From positions 6,348-70,347 of the forward strand of contig DJWJ01000031.1 of assembly GCA_002440965.1 (NCBI GenBank): 64,000 nucleotides of DNA, in the 5' to 3' direction. Made by a program: the position numbers and the translations under genes. The notes beneath the pieces are model-generated. The model was not told where the DNA came from, searched no databases, and worked only from the letters and a program-made list of their open reading frames with translations. Within the stretch, counting starts at the first letter, position 1; the number at the start of each line of letters is the position of its first letter. Source of the stretch: Candidatus Omnitrophica bacterium UBA6233. GTDB lineage: Bacteria > Omnitrophota > Gorgyraeia > Gygaellales > Profunditerraquicolaceae. Positions 1 through 9,136 of this stretch are shown in pieces.

Positions 1-79
1 GATGATACGATAAAAGTCAAATAAAGTTGGTGAAATGCTCTGGATTATCGGTATTATGACCATAGTCTGGAGTAGATAG

Positions 80-248
80 GTTATAGGTTGCATTCGCTTG
101 TTGGGGCTTGACCCCGTTAAGGAGATTAACTTTAGCACCTATAATCGAATAGTCACCATAGGGCTTGACCCTGAATAGGAGAATGGTGTTCACCGACTCA
201 TAATTCTACTCCGAGACGAGGCAGGTAACATAACAAGGGGAGGGAGTT
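80..248 (+). ncRNA. Putative IS110 bridge/seek-type ncRNA in the non-coding left end (speculative)
   Basis: About 170-nt non-coding left end upstream of the recombinase gene. Contains two 22-nt imperfect direct repeats (104-125, 161-182). Segment 199-215 is reverse-complementary to the element's right end (GGAGTAGAATTAT at 1288-1300). Confidence 0.25.
104..182. repeat. Two 22-nt imperfect direct repeats GGGCTTGACCC(C/T)G..A(A/T)AGGAGA
   Basis: Read directly from sequence: 104-125 and 161-182 are 19/22 identical. Confidence 0.6.
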
Positions 249-1274
249 ATGGGGAGAATGATCGGGGTGGATTTACACAAGAATAGCTTTACCATCTGCA
301 GCTACAAGTCTGAAGATGACTATAAGCTAAAGACGCATAGAGTGAGCCCGAAGGGAATTGAGGCGTTTAAGGCAAGTCTCACCAGGTATGACGAATTAGC
401 AGTAGAATCAACCGGTAACACAGCATTCTTTGTAAGAGAAGTAGAATCGAAAGTAAAGCGGATTAGAATCGTTAACCCGATACAGTTTAAGGTTATCTCA
501 AGCTCGGTAAAGAAAACAGATGAAGCAGACGCTTTGACCATAGCGCGGTTTTTAAGCAAGGATATGATACCTGAGGTAAGGATGCGCACAAAAGAACAGT
601 CGCAGATAGCGTCACTGATTGGCACCAGGGACAAATTCGTGAAGCTGCGCACGGCGCTGAAGAACAAGATACATAATATTCTAAATGCTAACGGGATCGT
701 AACTAAGCCTGAAATGTTTACTTCAGAGAAGGGCTTCGAGAAGATAGCGGCTATTGAATTGGAAAGTTCTTATCGGTTTGAAGTTGATCTGATCGTTGGC
801 CAGATACGGAATTTGAATGAGGCGGTGGATAAGATTAATGATGAGCTTAAAGCCAGGGGCCAGAATATCGATGGCCATAAGAACCTTACCAGCATCAAAG
901 GCATCAGCGATATCGGCGCTACGATATTCCTGAATACCATTGGGGATATTAACGATTTTAAGAGCGATAAACAATTAGCAGCATACTTTGGCATAGTGCC
1001 GCGGGTATATGTGTCGAATAATACAGCGCACTATGGACGCATTACCAAAATGGGTAATAAGATTGCCAGGACTGCTTTGGTGCAGTCAACGTTGGTTGCG
1101 ATAAGGTATAGCCCGTATTTAAGGCGTTTTTACGATAAGCTTAAAACTAAGAAAGGCAGTGGTAAGGCGATTATTGCTACTTCTCGTAAGATGTTAGGGA
1201 TAATTTACAATACTTTAAAGAATAACTGGATATTTGAAGATTTTACACAATTTAAGTTAGTAGGGTGTGTATAG
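249..1274 (+). CDS. IS110-family DEDD transposase/recombinase
   Basis: N-terminal MIGVDLHKNSF... is the typical IS110/IS116/IS902 RuvC-like N-terminus. C-terminal Tnp domain (GIG...ATIF..IGD). 341 aa. GGGGAGGG RBS upstream. Confidence 0.8.
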   Translation: MGRMIGVDLHKNSFTICSYKSEDDYKLKTHRVSPKGIEAFKASLTRYDELAVESTGNTAFFVREVESKVKRIRIVNPIQFKVISSSVKKTDEADALTIARFLSKDMIPEVRMRTKEQSQIASLIGTRDKFVKLRTALKNKIHNILNANGIVTKPEMFTSEKGFEKIAAIELESSYRFEVDLIVGQIRNLNEAVDKINDELKARGQNIDGHKNLTSIKGISDIGATIFLNTIGDINDFKSDKQLAAYFGIVPRVYVSNNTAHYGRITKMGNKIARTALVQSTLVAIRYSPYLRRFYDKLKTKKGSGKAIIATSRKMLGIIYNTLKNNWIFEDFTQFKLVGCV

Positions 1275-1326
1275 GTGCGCATACTGGAGTAGAATTATTT
1301 GACTTTTAACATAGGAGGCGAAGGCT

Positions 1327-1881
1327 ATGGCATATCGAAGCGGAACATACGTTGCTTTTTATGCAGAAGGTAAAACTGAACCAGACGAAACAGATATGAA
1401 ATACTATAATTTACTGCAAGCTTGGGATAAGAATAAGGCTTTTGATTTCTCTTTTGTTAATAGTCATGAAAAAGCTAGCGCCGTAAGAGATACGAGCAAA
1501 AAGATTACATTGGAAAATACCTTGAAAGAGCGGTTAAGAAACTCAAAAAATATGATTTTAGTTATTGGTAAGACAACGAGGTTAGATAGGGACTGGGTTC
1601 CGATGGAGATAGAATATGCGGTAGAAAATTGTAAAATTACCATTATTGCAGCTTATCCAGGATACTTAAATATCCGGGCTCCTCAGCAACTTTCTTTGTT
1701 ATGGCCTACTGCGCTTAAGGAACGAATCGAAAATAATACTGCTCATGTGATCCACATTCCGTTTAGAGAGAAGCCGATTATTGATGCAATTTCGCAATTT
1801 GACTATAACAAATTCCCAAATGGTGGCGGGCTAGGGCATTATAATGATGATGCCTACAGGAGCTGGGGGTTGTTAACCTGA
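1327..1881 (+). CDS. TIR-like domain protein (DUF1863/MTH538 family, ThsB-like)
   Basis: YVAF N-terminal strand, and DWVPMEIEYA with a conserved Glu in the catalytic position of TIR/ThsB-like NADases. 184 aa. AGGAGG RBS. Confidence 0.55.
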   Translation: MAYRSGTYVAFYAEGKTEPDETDMKYYNLLQAWDKNKAFDFSFVNSHEKASAVRDTSKKITLENTLKERLRNSKNMILVIGKTTRLDRDWVPMEIEYAVENCKITIIAAYPGYLNIRAPQQLSLLWPTALKERIENNTAHVIHIPFREKPIIDAISQFDYNKFPNGGGLGHYNDDAYRSWGLLT

Positions 1882-1997
1882 GGACAGTAAAGTTAAGTAA
1901 TATAGATTTACTGTCCCTAAGTTAGTTAATTATTAAGGCGGTATAAAATGGGTACTGATGGCAAAAAATAGTTACTCTGATTCAAGAATTTCATAAG

Positions 1998-2873
1998 TTG
2001 CCCGAGCATGCTCTTTATAAGTCACTAACCGGTTTTAACATTTCTCACTATATATTTAATAAAAACTATTCAGAGCTTCTAAAAATTATAGAATTTATAA
2101 CTAATAACCCAGAGTCTGAATGCTTAATGGACATACGAAATCGCGATCAATTAAATAAGATATTCGAGGAGGTAATTAGATTAATTCACAATTTTGTAGC
2201 ATCAGCAATATCATTAGTTGATCACACAAGAAACATATATAAAAAATTATATAGTTCCAACGGGGAATTTCCTGATTATCAAGACCGGATTAATGTTGAG
2301 TTTGCTAGCGATCCGCTAGTTCAGTTTGTCCACTGTCTCCGCCAATATTGCCAGCATTATCGAGCACCGGATATTTCATTACAGGTTTCTTTTACCGGTG
2401 GAAAAATGAAAAAGACAGTAAATTTACTAAAAGAAGATTTAAGAATATTTGACTCATGGAATGCAACTGCAATAAAGTATCTAGATTCAATTAAAGAGCG
2501 TGTAGATGTATATGAATTAATAACCATATATCATAAAAAAGTACTAGATTTTCATGTTTGGTTTAACTCCAGGCAGAAAGAAATCCATAAAATAGAGTTT
2601 GATTTGTTAAGAAAAAAAGAAGAAGAGCTTTTAACGGCACAATTGGATCATTTTTTAGATACGGCTCTTTCTATCAAAGAAAAATCCAACAGTGGAGAAG
2701 TAGACATATTTTACGGTATTTTTAATTCCAGAGATTATAAGGAATTAAGCGGTATGCCTATGAATGAACCAAAGCGATGTGCAAGAGCGATTGAATTAAT
2801 CGAAATGCACCTTCCTGTTTCTGATAACATAAAAAAGAAAATAAATGCTTGGTATAAAAAACAAAGCCAATAA
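1998..2873 (+). CDS. Hypothetical protein (predicted mostly alpha-helical), TTG start or internal ATG at 2127
   Basis: 291-aa ORF in a very AT-rich segment with no recognisable motifs. Tightly packed with flanking genes. Confidence 0.45.
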   Translation: MPEHALYKSLTGFNISHYIFNKNYSELLKIIEFITNNPESECLMDIRNRDQLNKIFEEVIRLIHNFVASAISLVDHTRNIYKKLYSSNGEFPDYQDRINVEFASDPLVQFVHCLRQYCQHYRAPDISLQVSFTGGKMKKTVNLLKEDLRIFDSWNATAIKYLDSIKERVDVYELITIYHKKVLDFHVWFNSRQKEIHKIEFDLLRKKEEELLTAQLDHFLDTALSIKEKSNSGEVDIFYGIFNSRDYKELSGMPMNEPKRCARAIELIEMHLPVSDNIKKKINAWYKKQSQ

Positions 2874-2895
2874 AACTACAGGGAAGGAGAATACT

Positions 2896-3531
2896 ATGAG
2901 AGCTATTATTGCGATTCATGGAATCAGGAGCAATAAAAAGGATAATTGGATTTACAGTTTTTGTGACTTTGCTAAGGCCGATCTTCGTTTTCAAGGAGAT
3001 GTTGTCCTGCCTTATTATTACGGATTTTTACCTGCTATAGATAGTGTTAATGGATTTGATCGACTTAGGTTTATTCGCGGATTTATGAAGTTTTTACGAG
3101 GTGTTAAAAGTGATTATCCACAAGCAGACCTTAATATTGTTGCGCATAGCTATGGTACAGAAATAAGTTTTCAGGCCATAAAAAGAAGTGGGGAAGACAG
3201 TGTGAAAAAGGGGCCGATTTTGGTTAATAAGCTTATCCTAGCGGGTAGCATTGTTTCTGCTCATAGAGAGATTCCTTACGCTGATACACTTCGAGCAGGA
3301 AAGATTAAAGAAATGCATTGTTACTGTAGCTATGAAGATGAGGTTTGCCGATATAATCCTTTCGGGCATTCAGGTTGCTTTGGATTCCTGAAGCACGTAC
3401 ATGATCCTGTTTGTTATCCAAAACCTTTTGATGATTTAAATATTTTTAATCATCAGACAAATACTCTGGAGCATTGTGATTATTTTACAAAGCAATATGA
3501 ACAAAAATGGCTTGATATCATTGCTAAATAG
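2896..3531 (+). CDS. Small alpha/beta-hydrolase-fold protein (putative esterase/lipase-like)
   Basis: AIHGIRS N-terminal strand, nucleophile elbow VAHSYG (GxSxG-like), later Asp/His candidates. GGAGAA RBS before ATG 2896. The track ORF begins earlier at 2845 in frame. Confidence 0.5.
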   Translation: MRAIIAIHGIRSNKKDNWIYSFCDFAKADLRFQGDVVLPYYYGFLPAIDSVNGFDRLRFIRGFMKFLRGVKSDYPQADLNIVAHSYGTEISFQAIKRSGEDSVKKGPILVNKLILAGSIVSAHREIPYADTLRAGKIKEMHCYCSYEDEVCRYNPFGHSGCFGFLKHVHDPVCYPKPFDDLNIFNHQTNTLEHCDYFTKQYEQKWLDIIAK

Positions 3532-3575
3532 GAAAAAGGTGCCAATTCATTACAATAACATAAAGGAGTTTAATA

Positions 3576-4874
3576 ATGCCTAAAAAGAAAGGGTTAGCAA
3601 AAGAAATATTGAAAAGTAATTTACGAAATAAAAAAGTATATTATTATGTTGATTCCGAATCTGGCATTAAAATAAAAAGTAGGGAAGTTTTTAAAACTTC
3701 TTCAAAAACGATTCAGTTTCCCTTTTGGCCTAACGATGGAAAACCCAAGTATCCCTCGATAAGAAAAGTAATTTGTGAAGGTCTGCCTGAGCCTCTTCCT
3801 AGGGGTTTTTATAAATCTTATACAAAAGGGTATGGTTTTACAAGAGAGTTCAACCCTATAATTTACTACTTAAATAACTCCTTTCCCCAAATAACAACAG
3901 TTATTGTATCGAAAAGTGCTAAAAGTCGCTTCGTTGATAATAGAAAAGTTATTTTTAATCTTAAGGATTTTGAGAATGCCATTCCTCAGGTAGCCTTTAT
4001 GTTGGGCAATCATAGAGAACAAAAGGATTGTTTAGCAAATGACATTCTTTCAAAAATGTTTCCAGGAAAATTTACAGCTAAAGCTACAAAATATCAAAAA
4101 GGGCAATTAAATGCTTTTATCTCGCAGCATTCACTAAAACCAGACGAGCTCTCGAGTGAAGATGTCAAAAGTATTTCCTCTCTTTTTGCCTCGTTACCCT
4201 CAACTCATGAATTCATAAAAAAGAAAGGCATACTATCTACTAAAGAATCTGTCGACAGAATTTTTATTGAAGATATTCTGCAGAGATTTAATGATCTGTA
4301 TTCCCAAAAAACAGAAAGTCAAACCCTGGAGAATAAATGGCAGGAATTTTTTAAAGATAATATTTTGTATTTTAACTTTGGATATGTTGATTTTTTTGAA
4401 AAAAGTAGAATACAGGGTGATATTTCTACTGAAATTCCCGATTTTACAATACTAAATATTTATGGATATTTAGATGTATTCGAAATAAAAACGCATTTGA
4501 CAAAGCTTTTAAGTTTTGATTCCCAAAGAAAAAATTTCTATTGGACCTCAGAAGCAAGTAGGGCAATTTCACAAGCAGAAAATTACATAGATGCTATTAC
4601 AAAAGAAGAGTTAAAAATATGCAAAAACATATTGGATGAATATAGCTATAATATTAATGCAGTTCGTCCAAAAGTTTATATCATTGCAAGCTCAAGAGAC
4701 AAGTTAGCTGGAAGCAAGACTTTAAAATACCAAGGTAAACTTAAGAGGAAACTAAATAATGATTTTAGGCGGTTAAATAATTCGCTGAAAAACATTACTT
4801 TTATTCTTTATGATGAACTATTAGAAGTATTTCAAAATACACTAAAAAGGTTGCAATTAAAGAATGCAGAATAA
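3576..4874 (+). CDS. Shedu-like (DUF4263) PD-(D/E)xK nuclease-domain protein
   Basis: C-terminal PDFTIL...DVFEIKTH...QAENYID...KVYIIASSRD fits the D-(E)xK-Q-Y motif and the end of the DUF4263 nuclease. N-terminal 270 aa of unknown function. Confidence 0.45.
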   Translation: MPKKKGLAKEILKSNLRNKKVYYYVDSESGIKIKSREVFKTSSKTIQFPFWPNDGKPKYPSIRKVICEGLPEPLPRGFYKSYTKGYGFTREFNPIIYYLNNSFPQITTVIVSKSAKSRFVDNRKVIFNLKDFENAIPQVAFMLGNHREQKDCLANDILSKMFPGKFTAKATKYQKGQLNAFISQHSLKPDELSSEDVKSISSLFASLPSTHEFIKKKGILSTKESVDRIFIEDILQRFNDLYSQKTESQTLENKWQEFFKDNILYFNFGYVDFFEKSRIQGDISTEIPDFTILNIYGYLDVFEIKTHLTKLLSFDSQRKNFYWTSEASRAISQAENYIDAITKEELKICKNILDEYSYNINAVRPKVYIIASSRDKLAGSKTLKYQGKLKRKLNNDFRRLNNSLKNITFILYDELLEVFQNTLKRLQLKNAE

Positions 4875-4979
4875 ACAATCATGATAATTTACTAGAATGG
4901 CATTGAAATAGAGCAATAAAACTGACATATTTCAATTGTAAGATATTCTCCGAAAAGAAGTAAAATGGGGAGGGAGCGA

Positions 4980-5123
4980 ATGAAGAAAGTCAGATATGTT
5001 TGTAAAAAATGTGGTCACAAGTTTGTAGCCGAAGTCTTTGAACTAGGAGAAGCAGAAGAAAAAAGATTGCCTACAAGACCAGTTCTATGTGAAAGATGCG
5101 GAGGACCCGTAGAGAGATGCTAA
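4980..5123 (+). CDS. 47-aa Zn-ribbon miniprotein (CxxC...CxxC)
   Basis: GGGAGGGAG RBS 6 nt upstream of ATG. CKKCGH...CERCGG are two CxxC pairs. Not in the ORF track because it is under 60 aa. Confidence 0.35.
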   Translation: MKKVRYVCKKCGHKFVAEVFELGEAEEKRLPTRPVLCERCGGPVERC

Positions 5124-5235
5124 ATTTATTTGATAAACTGCTACTCGTTGGCGTGGCTTGATTAGCAATAAGGTCTATTTTTATTACATTTTTGTCTTAA
5201 AATATATATAATATTTGTATGGACGGGAAAGATAT

Positions 5236-6126
5236 ATGAATCCAGAAATTATTTATACAAACTACAGAGATGAGGCGTTTGCAGAAAAATTTTCTGCAGA
5301 TGCTTATTTTTCTTTCGTAGCAATGCCTTTAGCGGACCATTTTAGTTATCATCCAAAAGAGGTTTTACAAAAAGTTATTCAAGAAGCAGCAAATTCTGCA
5401 AACAGAGAGCGGACAGGAGAAATCAAACAATTTTTATCACCTGAGACTGCTTTGGAAATACCAGGAACAGCTAACGTTATTACAGAGGATATTGTTAAGA
5501 AGATTCTAAGTTCGCATTTTTTTATAGCTGATTTAACAGGAGGAAATGCGGGAGTTTTGATTGAAACCGGTATTGCAATGGCATTTAAATCAAATTCTCA
5601 GATTATTCTTGTTACTCAACATTCCTTGAATGAGTTGCACTTTGATATTAGAAATAATCGAGTTATCTCTTACAATCCAAATGGGAACGTTGACGAAATT
5701 AAGAAAGCACTTTTATTTGCTGCTGGAAGTTTAGAAGAAGACCGGAAGAAATATGTAACACAGGTTTCCAATGGGCTTACTATAGATGCAATTCGCACCG
5801 TTCATTTTTATGCTCAAATTTACCAGAATCCTCAGGTGGAAGCAGGTCAACCAGGTCTTTTCGGGAAATGGGATAAAGAAAGACGATTACAAGGCAATAT
5901 ACCGGAATTTTTTAAAGGAGATTATGGCGAGGATGCTATTCTAATGTTCCAGTTGACTATGCAAGAATTATTAAAGAAGCGCCTTTTTTGGACAGATTAC
6001 AAAAGTCAGCTGGAGGGAGGTGTTGAACATCACGGCTGGGCAGCTCATTTAACGCGACTTGGATGGTTGTTGGTCAAGAATCTTTGGCCTCACTATAAGT
6101 CTGATTATTGCCATCGTTTAAATTAA
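5236..6126 (+). CDS. Nucleoside 2-deoxyribosyltransferase-like (Rossmann/TIR-related) domain protein
   Basis: IADLTGGNAGVLIETGIAMAFKSNSQIILV resembles the PF05014 core with a catalytic Glu. 297-303 aa depending on start (ATG 5215 or 5236). Confidence 0.35.
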   Translation: MNPEIIYTNYRDEAFAEKFSADAYFSFVAMPLADHFSYHPKEVLQKVIQEAANSANRERTGEIKQFLSPETALEIPGTANVITEDIVKKILSSHFFIADLTGGNAGVLIETGIAMAFKSNSQIILVTQHSLNELHFDIRNNRVISYNPNGNVDEIKKALLFAAGSLEEDRKKYVTQVSNGLTIDAIRTVHFYAQIYQNPQVEAGQPGLFGKWDKERRLQGNIPEFFKGDYGEDAILMFQLTMQELLKKRLFWTDYKSQLEGGVEHHGWAAHLTRLGWLLVKNLWPHYKSDYCHRLN

Positions 6127-6128
6127 AA

Positions 6129-6169
6129 AGAATAGCATTTAGAAACGCGCTATTCTTTCTCCTTTTCTC
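6129..6169 (+). terminator. Rho-independent terminator
   Basis: Stem AGAATAGC (6129-6136) / GCTATTCT (6149-6156), 12-nt loop, T-rich tail TTCTCCTTTTCTC. Confidence 0.5.
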
Positions 6170-6427
6170 AAAACTGTGCCATTTCCAAATACCCTGTATA
6201 CAGAGAGTTTTTCTGCCGCGCCGTATTTCTGGGCGTCCTTACTGAGTTCACCTCTTATTGACTATTTTATGATTTCCAGATTTTCTAATTTTTTATAATA
6301 AATAATGTTGTAGAAGAGTTTTTCTGGAGTAAAATATGAAAAAGATGTGTTACGTATTACCAACAGACAAGGTTAATCAGTTAGGAATAATGGAGTCATT
6401 TTTTTATTTCGACAACACTTGATAAAA

Positions 6428-7231
6428 ATGGAAGCCAATCAATTTACAGAATATTTAAAATCACTTTCTGCAGAAATGCAGGTAACTAAGGATCGAATTC
6501 GTTTACTCATAGGTGATAGACATTGGCAAACAGACGGTGAACATAAGGAAGCCATCTTGCGGAAAATGATTCGTTCAGTAATCCCGAGCAAATTAAGTAT
6601 ATGTAGAGGGTTTATGGTGAATCATTTACAAGATGGTACGGGACAAATTGATATTCTTATTCTTGATCGTTTGAATAAACCCGTCTTGTTTCAGGATGAT
6701 GAATTAGTTATTACAACACCTGATTGTGTTAGAGGAATAATTGAAGTTAAAACTAGGATTAATAGTGCTACGGAACTTGACGAAATATTATTGAAGATGA
6801 GCGATTATCTAGAGTTTCAGAAAAAGTATTCCGATATTGCTGCTTTTGGTGGACTATTTGTCTATGAAGATTCAGCGATATCTAATGAAGATGTATTAAA
6901 AGCTCTATATGAATCTGCCAAGAAGGATCAAGCGCGTGCGGTTAATTGGATGAGTATAGGATTAGATAGATTTTTTAGATTTTGGCCAAACGAATTGAAC
7001 CCTGCTGCTAAGATAGGGGGAGATTCCTTCTGGCATTCTTATGAACTTAGAGATTTGTCGCAAGCATATTTTATTAGTAATGTTATGTGGGATGTATCTA
7101 AGCAAGGTATAAATAGCCTATTTAGCGTGGAACGTGCAGACAAGGTTTGGTTTCCTTTACCCGAAGGAAAGGAATTCTATAAGAATGGTTCTATAGGCCT
7201 AAATAGCGGAATAGTTGATTTTAGTCATTAA
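6428..7231 (+). CDS. Predicted PD-(D/E)xK-fold nuclease-like protein (hypothetical)
   Basis: QIDILILD ... IIEVKT gives a D..(E)xK spacing typical of restriction-endonuclease-like folds. The track start TTG 6419 is in frame with ATG 6428. Confidence 0.35.
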   Translation: MEANQFTEYLKSLSAEMQVTKDRIRLLIGDRHWQTDGEHKEAILRKMIRSVIPSKLSICRGFMVNHLQDGTGQIDILILDRLNKPVLFQDDELVITTPDCVRGIIEVKTRINSATELDEILLKMSDYLEFQKKYSDIAAFGGLFVYEDSAISNEDVLKALYESAKKDQARAVNWMSIGLDRFFRFWPNELNPAAKIGGDSFWHSYELRDLSQAYFISNVMWDVSKQGINSLFSVERADKVWFPLPEGKEFYKNGSIGLNSGIVDFSH

Positions 7232-7259
7232 ATGGGCTCTGGCTTAATTTATCATTGTT

Positions 7260-8400
7260 CCTACTGTGTAATATTTAGTTGGTAAATTACTCCCAATAAT
7301 AATGTTTTATCATCCCGCCTAGTCGAGATTGACATTTAATCCTGCCTTTAGTTTTCCCCGGACTATACCCTAAAGGTTCATTGTTTACACCCGAATGTGG
7401 CCTTTTAGTGTTGTAATGACCTACATACTCCCGAATCAGGTATTTTAAGTGCTCTTCCCCAAACACGAAAAAATGATCCAAGCACTCGCGCTTAATGGTT
7501 CCAACAAACCCTTCAGCATAAGGGTTAAGGTTAGGAGAACGATAAGGGATTCTTTTAACCTCGGCATTATGTGGTTTAAATAGTTCATCAAACTCTTTAG
7601 GAAATTTTGCGTCGCCGTCCCGGATAAGAAGCTTCTTAGTTCTATCCTTAAAGATGAAAGAGAGGCTCTTTGTGGTATCGACTACCCATTTTTTATCTGG
7701 CTTTGTGGTAATCCCAGCTATATGTACCTTGCGAGTCCTGATATTAATAAAGAATAGCACATGGAATATCTTTGGCCCCAAGGCAGTCCATACTGTCTTG
7801 GTGAAGAAATCACAGGCCCAGAGAGTTTCAAAGTGTCTTTTGATGAATGCGTCCCAGGAATCTTCCTTGCGTTTAGGAGATGGCTCAATGCCGTTTCTAA
7901 GCAGGATTAACTTTATGGCGCTCCGGGATAGCCTTGAGATATTGAGCTTCTTTAACTCAGCCAAGATCCTACCATAGCCCCATAGTTTATTCTCTTTGGC
8001 CATGCGGACAATGAGATCAACGATCTCCTGCATAGTTTTCCTGGGTCTGCCACGTTTGAGCTGTTTACTAGTCACGCCTTCTGCTGCCCATCTGCGGAAA
8101 GTAGAGTAACTTACTATAGATATAATACTTTTGATCTGTCCGCGCAAAGGCAGGCCATATTTGATGAGCCTACGTTTTTCAGATGTAGTAGTGGTAATCC
8201 TTTTAGGTAGCTTAGAGCGCAGGATTTCGTTTTCAACTTTCATGTATTCAATTTGGCGGATAAGATTAGAATGTGTCATCTTCCCCAAGAGTCCCAAAAA
8301 CTCTTGGAAAAGGGTGCCGTTTATGGTATAAGATTTAGTGAAGTCCATTGGTTTTCTCCTTTGAAAAGTTAATGGATGAAATTAGTAATTAACCTTATGT
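7260..8400 (-). mobile_element. IS element carrying the rve transposase (boundaries approximate)
   Basis: Single transposase ORF. Weak imperfect IR candidates TGGTAAATTACT (about 7279) and AGTAATTAACC (about 8388). Ends not confidently defined. Confidence 0.3.
7287..8348 (-). CDS. DDE transposase, integrase-core (rve) domain, IS481/IS3-like
   Basis: N-terminal HTH region, central D..D..E integrase core (DFT...WACDFF...PYAEGF), C-terminal ...HYNTKRPH typical of rve transposases. 353 aa. Confidence 0.75.
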   Translation of the reverse strand: MDFTKSYTINGTLFQEFLGLLGKMTHSNLIRQIEYMKVENEILRSKLPKRITTTTSEKRRLIKYGLPLRGQIKSIISIVSYSTFRRWAAEGVTSKQLKRGRPRKTMQEIVDLIVRMAKENKLWGYGRILAELKKLNISRLSRSAIKLILLRNGIEPSPKRKEDSWDAFIKRHFETLWACDFFTKTVWTALGPKIFHVLFFINIRTRKVHIAGITTKPDKKWVVDTTKSLSFIFKDRTKKLLIRDGDAKFPKEFDELFKPHNAEVKRIPYRSPNLNPYAEGFVGTIKRECLDHFFVFGEEHLKYLIREYVGHYNTKRPHSGVNNEPLGYSPGKTKGRIKCQSRLGGMIKHYYWE

Positions 8401-8934
8401 TTTGCTACCGGTTAGGACATAGTTTCACTCGTTATTTGACAGGTCTCATAATTTCTGTACCCCGCTGGGAGCAAAAAGCCATAAAATCGCCAAATTCCCT
8501 TCAAAAATTCTCACTTTTTTAGGGCTGATTTTTGGTGGTTTCTTGGCGTTTAGTTTGGCATTTAGTTAAGGCGCGGGGCCAATGAAGCCCAGGTGCTTTA
8601 GAGAGCTAAGAACCATATTTAAGTGCTCTTTTAAATCAGCAAGTGATATGTCTCTAACACCAATGTCCGGACAAATAAGGGTGGACAAACCTATCTCCTA
8701 ATAAATCAAAGAGTTAGGGAAATTAGAGACAAAAATAACCGGACAAATAAGACATTTTTTGCGAGGGAAAACCTCTCTAAAGACGAAATTTCCCTTCTTA
8801 TTGGCCATAAATCCGATATAATACATACTAGCAATAGTGAGAGGTTCCACCTCGGCAAACCGGAGTGGGACCCCAATTTCTATTTCCTCGGTTCTCGACG
8901 ATGGAGTCATTCCCAACAATTTTATTTATTCTTG

Positions 8935-8962
8935 TTGACTTATTGCAAAAATGTGCTACCAT
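8935..8962 (+). promoter_or_regulatory. Candidate sigma70 promoter for the cold-shock gene (long 5' UTR)
   Basis: TTGACT (8935-8940), 16-nt spacer, extended -10 TGcTACCAT (8954-8962). Would give an approximately 170-nt leader, as in cspA-type genes. Confidence 0.3.
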
Positions 8963-9136
8963 AGTTTTGTAGTAAAGATTAGAAGTCTTAGGCCGTGAGG
9001 ATTAGGAAACTAACCTTGCGGTTTTTTTATCGCTGTCATTGTTTGTCCGGTTAGAGTTAGTAGAATCTATCAGATGAAAGTGAGGCGGATTTCTGAAAGA
9101 TTTTACTATAATTATAAGAAAAGGAGGTAACAAGCA

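Follow-up and report, generated by a model that had tools for sequence, protein, structure and literature searches.

A ThsB-type TIR gene in a Candidatus Omnitrophica defence island, probably separated by an IS110 element from a Thoeris-like operon with an HD-like protein

We analyzed 64,000 nucleotides (nt) of contig DJWJ01000031.1 from Candidatus Omnitrophica bacterium UBA6233 (GCA_002440965.1), hereafter called the window, and in particular three plus-strand open reading frames (ORFs) near its left end, at 1327-1881 (184 amino acids, aa), 1998-2873 (291 aa), and 2845-3531. In a preliminary description of this DNA, whose positions for the three ORFs were borne out, they were read as an orphan TIR-like gene forming a module with a helical protein and a small alpha/beta hydrolase, or else as a TIR singleton beside an unrelated lipase-type effector. 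The three genes lie within window bases 1 to ~8,400, which are bounded by an IS110 transposase gene (249-1274) and an rve-type transposase gene (7287-8348, minus strand). The same region also holds SduA, a zinc-ribbon ORF, a 303-aa protein, and a DUF6602/NucC-like nuclease; since SduA is present, the region is a defence island. The positions of the features are collected in Table 1, and the TIR protein is called ThsB184 below.

The assignment of ThsB184 to the TIR/ThsB proteins passed the profile searches. It matched Pfam ThsB_TIR (PF08937) at 4.4e-17 with 62.7 bits, against a cutoff of 21.2, and the PADLOC ThsB model PDLC00421 at 1.8e-64 over its full length (residues 1-162). The putative catalytic Glu of the 'PMEIEYA' motif, already pointed out in the preliminary description, is E94 and is invariant in 26 relatives with identity down to 32% (alignment A3; also alignment A4). 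The ORF is intact, and every family-invariant residue, including Glu94, is kept. A profile search of viral contigs with the ThsB alignment A4 yielded five ThsB184-type loci. Their TIR proteins are 43-56% identical to ThsB184, and each is encoded directly 3' of a ThsA_Macro gene of 280-290 aa (PF20016, ~1e-43 to 1e-46; PADLOC ThsA, down to 1e-69). Because these relatives directly follow ThsA_Macro genes, ThsB184 is, judged on sequence, a member of the type II Thoeris ThsB clade and thus a signalling ThsB, which would here be re-used with another partner. A scan of genome contigs with the single ThsB184 protein as the query gave no confirmed relatives. ThsB184-type proteins amount to 366 clusters.

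The surroundings of thsB184 were recovered from a longer contig. By exact-sequence look-up, the 291-aa protein was located on a JGI contig of 106 kb (L012) and on one other contig (L013). Over the stretch compared, L012 and the window are 100% identical, with an offset of 8,003 bases, and the gene order on L012 is TIR349 – 398 aa – ThsB142 – [IS110] – ThsB184, in which the numbers give the protein lengths. This order is also implied in an NCBI Omnitrophota metagenome-assembled genome (MAG), in which five locus tags separate the hydrolase (WC578_01905) from the 398-aa protein (WC578_01930). ThsB184 had seemed an orphan because the window starts at the IS110 element and its partners stand just outside. 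The word therefore holds inside the window only; on the parent contig it fails, since a TIR–HD-like–ThsB cluster ends 7 bp upstream.

The IS110 transposase was identified by NCBIfam transpos_IS110 (NF033542; 223.9 bits, cutoff 140) and by Pfam DEDD_Tnp_IS110 (PF01548) and Transposase_20 (PF02371). The insertion sequence (IS) is present as a single copy in the window, has the same orientation as the operon, and has its right end between 1275 and about 1322. Its non-coding left end would be the expected site of a bridge/guide RNA region; an Rfam search of window bases 1-9000 for bridge RNA or other RNA, including these 248 bp, gave no match.

An IS-free counterpart came to light when genome contigs were scanned with a 398-aa family alignment and the resulting loci were searched by local phmmer. 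In this locus (L016), which belongs to another Omnitrophota MAG, an HD-like gene (411 aa) and two thsB genes (141 and 183 aa) are contiguous and without an IS, and the spacer between the thsB genes is 13 nt (TAA-GGAGTAAATAATC-ATG). The proteins share 50% (HD-like), 75% (ThsB142), and 66% (ThsB184) identity with those of the system studied here. Synteny between L012 and L016 covers exactly the HD-like gene and the two thsB genes and breaks on both sides; in L016, the three genes are flanked by a serine recombinase gene and by helix-turn-helix (HTH) and SNF2 helicase genes. From the IS-free order and these limits of synteny, thsB184 can be taken as the last, 3' gene of an HD-like–ThsB–ThsB operon, with the IS110 element placed in the short stretch that separates its two thsB genes. 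The earlier alternative of a TIR singleton is hence not upheld: the L012 cluster is split by the IS, and the L016 operon is whole. By tblastn, the window itself contains no ThsA_Macro or HD-like gene that could be an effector partner of the TIR gene; the HD-like gene stands just upstream of it and is contiguous with the thsB genes in L016.

Both ends of thsB184 were inspected. An AGGAGG sequence lies 8 nt before the ATG, and the gene may be expressed by read-through despite the IS110 element. At its other end, a perfect 10-bp inverted repeat (Table 1) is located exactly where synteny with L016 stops. The hairpin has an RNA fold of -12.7 kcal/mol (z = -2.3). A terminator scan did not call it; it has no T-run and is not a canonical intrinsic terminator, and it may mark a transcript end or a cassette boundary.

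The same neighbourhood could be explained in another way, by taking ThsB184 as what is left of a decayed type II Thoeris system whose Macro-TM ThsA was lost in an IS-associated rearrangement, leaving a non-functional or free-standing protein. The IS110 element abuts thsB184, and the closest relatives found in viral contigs each stand directly after a ThsA_Macro gene. A tblastn search of the 64-kb window with four ThsA_Macro proteins and the HD-like protein gave no match (SIR2-SLOG ThsA was not searched for), which for the Macro type bears out the earlier remark that no ThsA-type (SIR2/Macro-SLOG) partner was seen there. To the left and right of thsB184, nine genes each were scanned without a Pfam or PADLOC match to SIR2, SLOG, or Macro, and precomputed Pfam calls for the rest of ±10 kb of L012 contained none of the three. 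However, the ORF is intact with all family-invariant residues, and the HD-like–ThsB–ThsB order recurs in a second genome, where it is IS-free, has the 13-nt spacer, and is retained at 50-75% identity, which argues for selection on the arrangement. We consider decay to a remnant unlikely.

The 398-aa protein upstream of the window has at least 849 bacterial and archaeal homologues. H90/H93, H146-D147, D257-H258, H298, and D330 are invariant in 25 sequences, and the motifs 'YVH93SVNV', 'LFH146D147IAYP', and 'ILCD330ELQEW' form the HSxxV…HDIA…D pattern of the HD superfamily. The AlphaFold2 (AF2) model of the protein was confident and scored 86.5 for predicted local distance difference (pLDDT) and 0.90 for predicted template modelling (pTM); its best PDB matches by Foldseek were the catalytic domain of PDE2A and PPX/GppA, non-significant at E about 1. 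Pfam HD did not match any of 25 family members, a PDB profile search gave no match, and hhalign against a bona fide HD protein returned a probability of 2.5%. On its motifs, we call the protein HD-like.

Two architectures were observed in this family, a short form of ~400 aa and a long form of ~580-600 aa with a C-terminal RyR domain (PF02026). Short-form genes have a ThsB142-type TIR gene 0-12 nt downstream in seven of 10 loci, from Omnitrophota, Methanosarcina, Clostridiaceae, Syntrophomonadaceae, and Haloplasmataceae; an eighth (L078, where the contig ends) has a TIR_2-type ORF 9 nt away, which brings the loci with a TIR neighbour to 8/10. For the long form, a TIR_2-type ORF was found within 1.5 kb in 34 of 72 loci, often as a TIR fused to leucine-rich repeats (TIR-LRR). 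When seven of these neighbours were compared with Pfam, six scored above the TIR_2 cutoff and one below it (22.1 vs 28 bits), and five carried LRRs. Phage RyR-domain proteins bind or cleave the cyclic ADP-ribose (cADPR) isomers 2'cADPR and 3'cADPR (2026 preprint, PMC13232231). Gene linkage and the RyR domain fusion thus tie the HD-like family to TIR signalling.

Pairs of HD-RyR (~580 aa) and TIR_2-LRR (320-630 aa) genes are widespread in Firmicutes and Chloroflexi MAGs (for example, L030 5989-9506, with the HD-RyR gene at 5989-7722; also L023, L026, L040, L052, L053, L057, and others), and they resemble a bacterial TIR-LRR sensor with an effector bearing a cADPR-binding RyR domain. Other HD-RyR neighbours include a channel-like membrane protein with a transmembrane (TM)–TrkA_N–RyR architecture, and a 516-aa protein with DUF4231 (SLATT-like) whose N-terminal 'GVTGHRD' looks SLOG-like by eye (L042 2484-4250; L076 7691-9241).

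The three-gene module was compared with other genomes as well. Iterative TIR profile searches, started from four seeds, were negative at all 11 other loci of the 291-aa family and at the four hydrolase loci scanned: none has a TIR ORF. Homologues of the 291-aa protein or the hydrolase were absent from 80 HD-like genome loci (L016-L095) and from the five viral ThsB184 loci, and the two families were never neighbours outside this contig. The 291-aa and hydrolase genes are therefore not co-conserved with TIR genes elsewhere. In the preliminary description, such an outcome was to count against an undescribed TIR-based module. As a new signalling system, the three genes would supply a TIR protein as the signal producer, the helical protein as its sensor, and a lipase-type hydrolase as the killer of the cell. 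The arrangement that had suggested this system is real: the genes are on the same strand with gaps of 116 nt (66 nt to a frameshifted start, see below) and 22 nt, all three lie inside the defence island, and the catalytic residues of the TIR protein and the hydrolase are intact. Nevertheless, besides the missing co-occurrence, the thsB184 stop codon, where the 10-bp hairpin lies, is precisely the limit of synteny with L016, and the 291-aa gene is frameshifted and has close relatives with a different conserved partner. We regard a signalling trio as very improbable. The fallback offered alongside it, that the hydrolase is unrelated to the TIR gene, agrees with the four hydrolase loci scanned, none of which has a TIR ORF.

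A TerL-like gene with a divergent HTH_31 repressor gene is common to L012 (1-2200), L007 (3566-5601), L009 (2-814), and L099 (745-2691), and in these four loci it is followed by different cargo. Loci of this kind mark a cargo/defence hotspot in a family of prophage- or satellite-like elements. The three genes stand side by side because they are alternative cassettes in the hotspot of one mobile-element family, and chance brought them together as a trio in this defence hotspot. Also inside the mobile element, upstream of the window and just before TIR349, L012 carries a cluster (2823-5193) of an HD protein (198 aa), a 200-aa protein without assignment, a SurE 5'-nucleotidase, and a CTP-dependent riboflavin-kinase-like protein.

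The reading that we favour, and hold to be fairly probable, is a Thoeris-like operon, with several TIR proteins as sensors and an HD-like protein as the effector, which was split by IS110 and is followed by unrelated cassettes, namely the 291-aa gene and the hydrolase gene. As part of it, bases 1 to ~8,400 would belong to a defence/cargo hotspot that a terminase-encoding mobile element carries in a genome of Candidatus Omnitrophota. The conserved core would consist of the HD-like protein (398 aa), ThsB142, and ThsB184, and the TIR_2-lectin-like 349-aa protein is possibly also a member. IS110 would have inserted into the 13-nt spacer between the thsB genes, pushing thsB184 into the window and leaving its partners outside. 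When a phage infects the cell, at least one of the TIR proteins, each perhaps responding to different cues, would convert NAD+ to an ADP-ribose-derived signal. This signal would activate the HD-like enzyme, which would then degrade nucleotides or nucleic acids so that the infection is aborted. What the data show directly are the gene identities, the interruption by the IS, the synteny, and the missing co-conservation. The association with TIR genes suggests an effector role for the HD-like protein; by analogy with characterised Thoeris systems, we infer signal production, the chemistry of the enzyme, and the defence phenotype.

Several points weigh against this reading. The HD assignment rests on motifs and non-significant Foldseek matches, and the comparisons with Pfam HD, PDB profiles, and hhalign failed. 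L016 is the only other genome with a ThsB184-type and a ThsB142-type gene behind an HD-like gene, and the remaining short-form loci carry a single ThsB. The short form is without the RyR domain and offers no recognisable signal-binding site, and the HD-like protein may act as a regulator that degrades the signal rather than as an effector. Furthermore, thsB184 may be silent or uncoupled as a result of the IS110 insertion. As for the cassettes, the neighbourhood samples are small, with eight distinct contexts for the 291-aa family and five for the hydrolase, and the 291-aa gene and the hydrolase gene, 22 nt apart on the same strand, are possibly co-transcribed here.

A wider proposal can be put forward tentatively, with somewhat less than even confidence. 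The 398-aa HD-like family may be an undescribed class of Thoeris-type effectors, whose short form is driven by ThsB TIRs and whose long form acts via RyR as a receptor for a TIR-made cADPR-type signal, with TIR-LRR proteins as the sensors. In that case, three alternative sensor TIRs, ThsB184 among them, would act on a single HD effector, and RyR, if this is true, would be a host-side signal-sensing domain in bacterial immunity.

Table 1. Features of the window and of the adjoining part of contig L012 (positions are those of the window unless stated otherwise).
Feature	Position	Strand	Evidence or remarks
TIR_2 protein, 349 aa	L012, upstream of window		PF13676 2.6e-12; PADLOC ThsB 3.3e-17
HD-like protein, 398 aa	L012, upstream of window		without family match
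ThsB, 142 aa	L012, stop codon 7 bp before window base 1		PF08937 6.8e-14
IS110-family insertion sequence	1..1322 (approx.)	+	transposase coding sequence 249-1274; left non-coding end 1-248
thsB184, ThsB-type TIR	1327-1881	+	PF08937, PADLOC PDLC00421, Glu94
Perfect 10-bp inverted repeat	1882-1916	+	GGACAGTAAA / TTTACTGTCC, 15-nt loop, directly after thsB184 stop
hel291, all-helical defence-island protein	1948-2873 (family start ATG 1948; intact ORF TTG 1998-2873)	+	26 homologues, frameshift
hyd211, predicted small alpha/beta hydrolase	2896-3531	+	ribosome-binding site and ATG 2896; 69 homologues; AHSYG elbow
Shedu (SduA) nuclease	3576-4874	+	PF14082 SduA_C 2.6e-20; PADLOC SduA PDLC00384 8.7e-23

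The 291-aa ORF starts 116 nt after the TIR stop codon and gave no significant Pfam, PADLOC, or NCBIfam match, as expected from its earlier description as a protein without recognisable motifs. Its 26 homologues are ~310 aa long and share the N-terminus M.SNGKKIV.LI.EF..LPEY. The window has the coding sequence for this N-terminus, which begins at ATG 1948 (MGTDGKK), 66 nt after the TIR gene, and continues in another frame (KIVTLIQEFHKLPEH…), one base being missing in the A6 run at 1963-1968. The frameshift is probably real and not a read error, since the same sequence was found in contigs from two different samples. The window's ORF thus appears, on comparison with its homologues, to be an N-terminally frameshifted copy, and a protein made from TTG 1998 would be without ~17 conserved residues.

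The residues H64, N65, H76, R78, Y94, Q95, R115, Q119, and H120 are invariant in the 291-aa family, and R115-x4-H120 together with H64, N65, H76, and R78 suggest a putative catalytic or binding site. Structure prediction, which had been proposed as a check for SLOG/SAVED/CARF-like pockets, gave a confident AF2 model (pLDDT 91) that is helical with one beta-hairpin. Foldseek searches of PDB and BFVD with it were negative at E<0.01. A match to phrog_12680, a family of unknown function, was obtained at 6.6e-6. Because a single member of 21 matched AbiJ_NTD4 (E 0.015), that match was treated as noise. The protein was also considered as a HEPN RNase. It resembles these enzymes in being all-helical, in residing in defence islands, and in having their Rx4-6H motif as an invariant R115-QYCQ-H120 ('LRQYCQHY'), but the motif lies at the C-terminal end of a helix and is followed by a beta-hairpin, unlike in canonical HEPN. 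The HEPN assignment was rejected: there was no Pfam HEPN match and no PDB profile support, and Foldseek matches to HEPN toxins reached only E about 3. That the protein is a stand-alone abortive-infection-type enzyme, possibly an RNase, is a weak guess of low confidence.

Homologues of the 291-aa protein were observed beside BREX genes (PglZ/BrxL), beside type I restriction-modification genes and Mrr, with PIN and integrase genes nearby, on a plasmid, beside Abi_C, and beside a proteasome-domain protein; a scan of viral contigs with the 291-aa alignment found nothing. Close relatives (70% identity) have a conserved, KE-rich, coiled-coil-like partner of ~250 aa (L007 6323-7087, L008 1265-2017, L010 8909-9673, and L011 2021-2785). 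This partner gave no Pfam, PADLOC, or PHROG match and left no remnant in the window. The 291-aa gene is an independent defence-island cassette and not a TIR partner.

The true start of the hydrolase gene is almost certainly ATG 2896, on the grounds that this codon stands behind a ribosome-binding site (GGGAAGGAG) and gives 211 aa, and that nearly all full-length members among the 69 homologues have 206-218 aa. Consequently, the gene begins 22 nt after the 291-aa gene. It had been described as overlapping or adjacent, and only adjacency remains. The AHSYG motif reported earlier is present in the ORF. H8-G9, S85 (A-H-S85-Y-G), D148, and H186/H193 are invariant in 21 sequences, which identifies the product, as far as sequence can, as an alpha/beta hydrolase with an intact oxyanion motif and Ser-Asp-His triad. 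Pfam matches were sub-threshold (Lipase_2, 19.3 vs 20.3 bits; DUF900, 17.5 vs 20.5), a PDB profile search gave no matches other than to class 3 lipases, which covered the nucleophile elbow at E 0.3, and a scan of viral contigs with the hydrolase alignment found nothing.

The two genes might instead form a system of their own without a TIR protein, for example a sensor or nuclease with a lipase-type effector. They are 22 nt apart on the same strand, and both families occur only in defence-island or mobile-element contexts. On the other hand, the families are never adjacent elsewhere, the close relatives of the 291-aa gene precede the KE-rich partner that the window lacks, and hydrolase relatives stand 5' or 3' of unrelated genes. 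A two-gene system is, in our judgement, quite improbable.

Hydrolase homologues were found in a conjugative element by a Tle1-like gene (L096), on a chromosome by HerA_C (L098), in a prophage-like cargo region, and in an operon (L101, 6001-11594) in which the hydrolase gene comes first, followed by methyltransferase, helicase, and SduA_C genes with gaps of 9, 1, and 4 nt. In the window, it lies 44 nt upstream of SduA. These positions, first in the tight SduA_C operon, directly 5' of the Tle1-like gene, and near HerA_C, invite the view that the hydrolase is functionally tied to the genes downstream of it (here Shedu) and not to those upstream, as an accessory protein or regulator 5' of varied defence operons. 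However, only five contexts are at hand, the partners differ among them, co-residency in a hotspot fits equally well, and the hydrolase has no regulatory domain; we give such a tie a low probability. The hydrolase gene is an independent cassette among the mobile-element cargo of Omnitrophota, possibly tied to downstream genes, and may serve as an accessory gene of varied defence operons in these bacteria.

Downstream of the trio, Shedu is a separate, single-gene defence system. Further on, the 303-aa protein (5215-6126) has a weak TIR / nucleoside 2-deoxyribosyltransferase-like core (PADLOC TIR effector, 8e-6; phrog_1817, 1.7e-5), and its gene is followed by that of the DUF6602/NucC-like PD-DExK nuclease (6419-7231; PF20247, 4.9e-19; PADLOC, 3e-22). 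These two genes may be a separate two-gene defence candidate.

Taken with its relatives, the locus presents a compact, conserved HD-like–ThsB(–ThsB) module in bacteria and archaea, and a sister architecture of TIR-LRR and HD-RyR, which links a host enzyme to the RyR domain. If confirmed, TIR immune signalling would gain HD phosphohydrolase as an effector chemistry and RyR as a sensor domain, and the operon would be a candidate for several TIR sensors converging on one effector. Most of the substance is just outside the window; an 'orphan' gene at a window edge beside an IS needs the parent contig to be read rightly.

Among known systems, type II Thoeris combines a ThsB TIR with a Macro-TM ThsA, for which Yirmiya et al. 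2025 (bioRxiv 10.64898/2025.12.03.692087) use the name ThsC. ThsB184 is like its TIR component in belonging to the same ThsB clade, in the full-length PADLOC ThsB match, and in the catalytic Glu; the system differs in that thsB184 is linked to an HD-like protein and a second ThsB, and not to a Macro ThsA, which is absent from the window and from the genes called in the flanking 10 kb. The main text of the same preprint counts 29 putative Thoeris configurations and names types I-XI, with SIR2-SLOG, Macro-TM, SLOG, caspase, DUF2270, DUF6650, SLATT, CMP hydrolase, TIR-SLOG, ion channel, and HIT hydrolase effectors; type III is described there as several TIRs with one SLOG effector. Such multi-TIR Thoeris systems are similar to the present cluster, in which TIR genes for 349, 142, and 184 aa stand with one non-TIR enzyme in a defence island, and they share the modular logic of TIR sensors swapped between effectors. 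The candidate effector here, an HD-like phosphohydrolase, is in contrast none of the types I-XI named in that text. The terms HD, HEPN, and RyR are likewise absent from the main text; Figure 1C and most of Table S1 lay outside this comparison, and a prior listing there is possible. A literature search for descriptions of TIR-HD systems or HD effectors found none.

With HD-superfamily defence enzymes that deplete nucleotides or cleave nucleic acids (SAMHD1-like dGTPases, Cas3 HD), the 398-aa family shares the HSxxV…HDIA…D metal-ligand signature, and its fold matches were to PDE2A and PPX/GppA, non-significantly; it differs from those enzymes in having no profile match to Pfam HD or PDB sequences. 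The phage RyR proteins (RyDEP, PMC13232231) are viral counter-defence factors, whereas HD-RyR would be RyR fused to a host enzyme, and the system at the window is the short form without RyR. What they have in common is the RyR domain (PF02026) itself: long-form HD-like members carry it beside TIR-LRR genes, and this ties the HD-like family to cADPR-type ligands.

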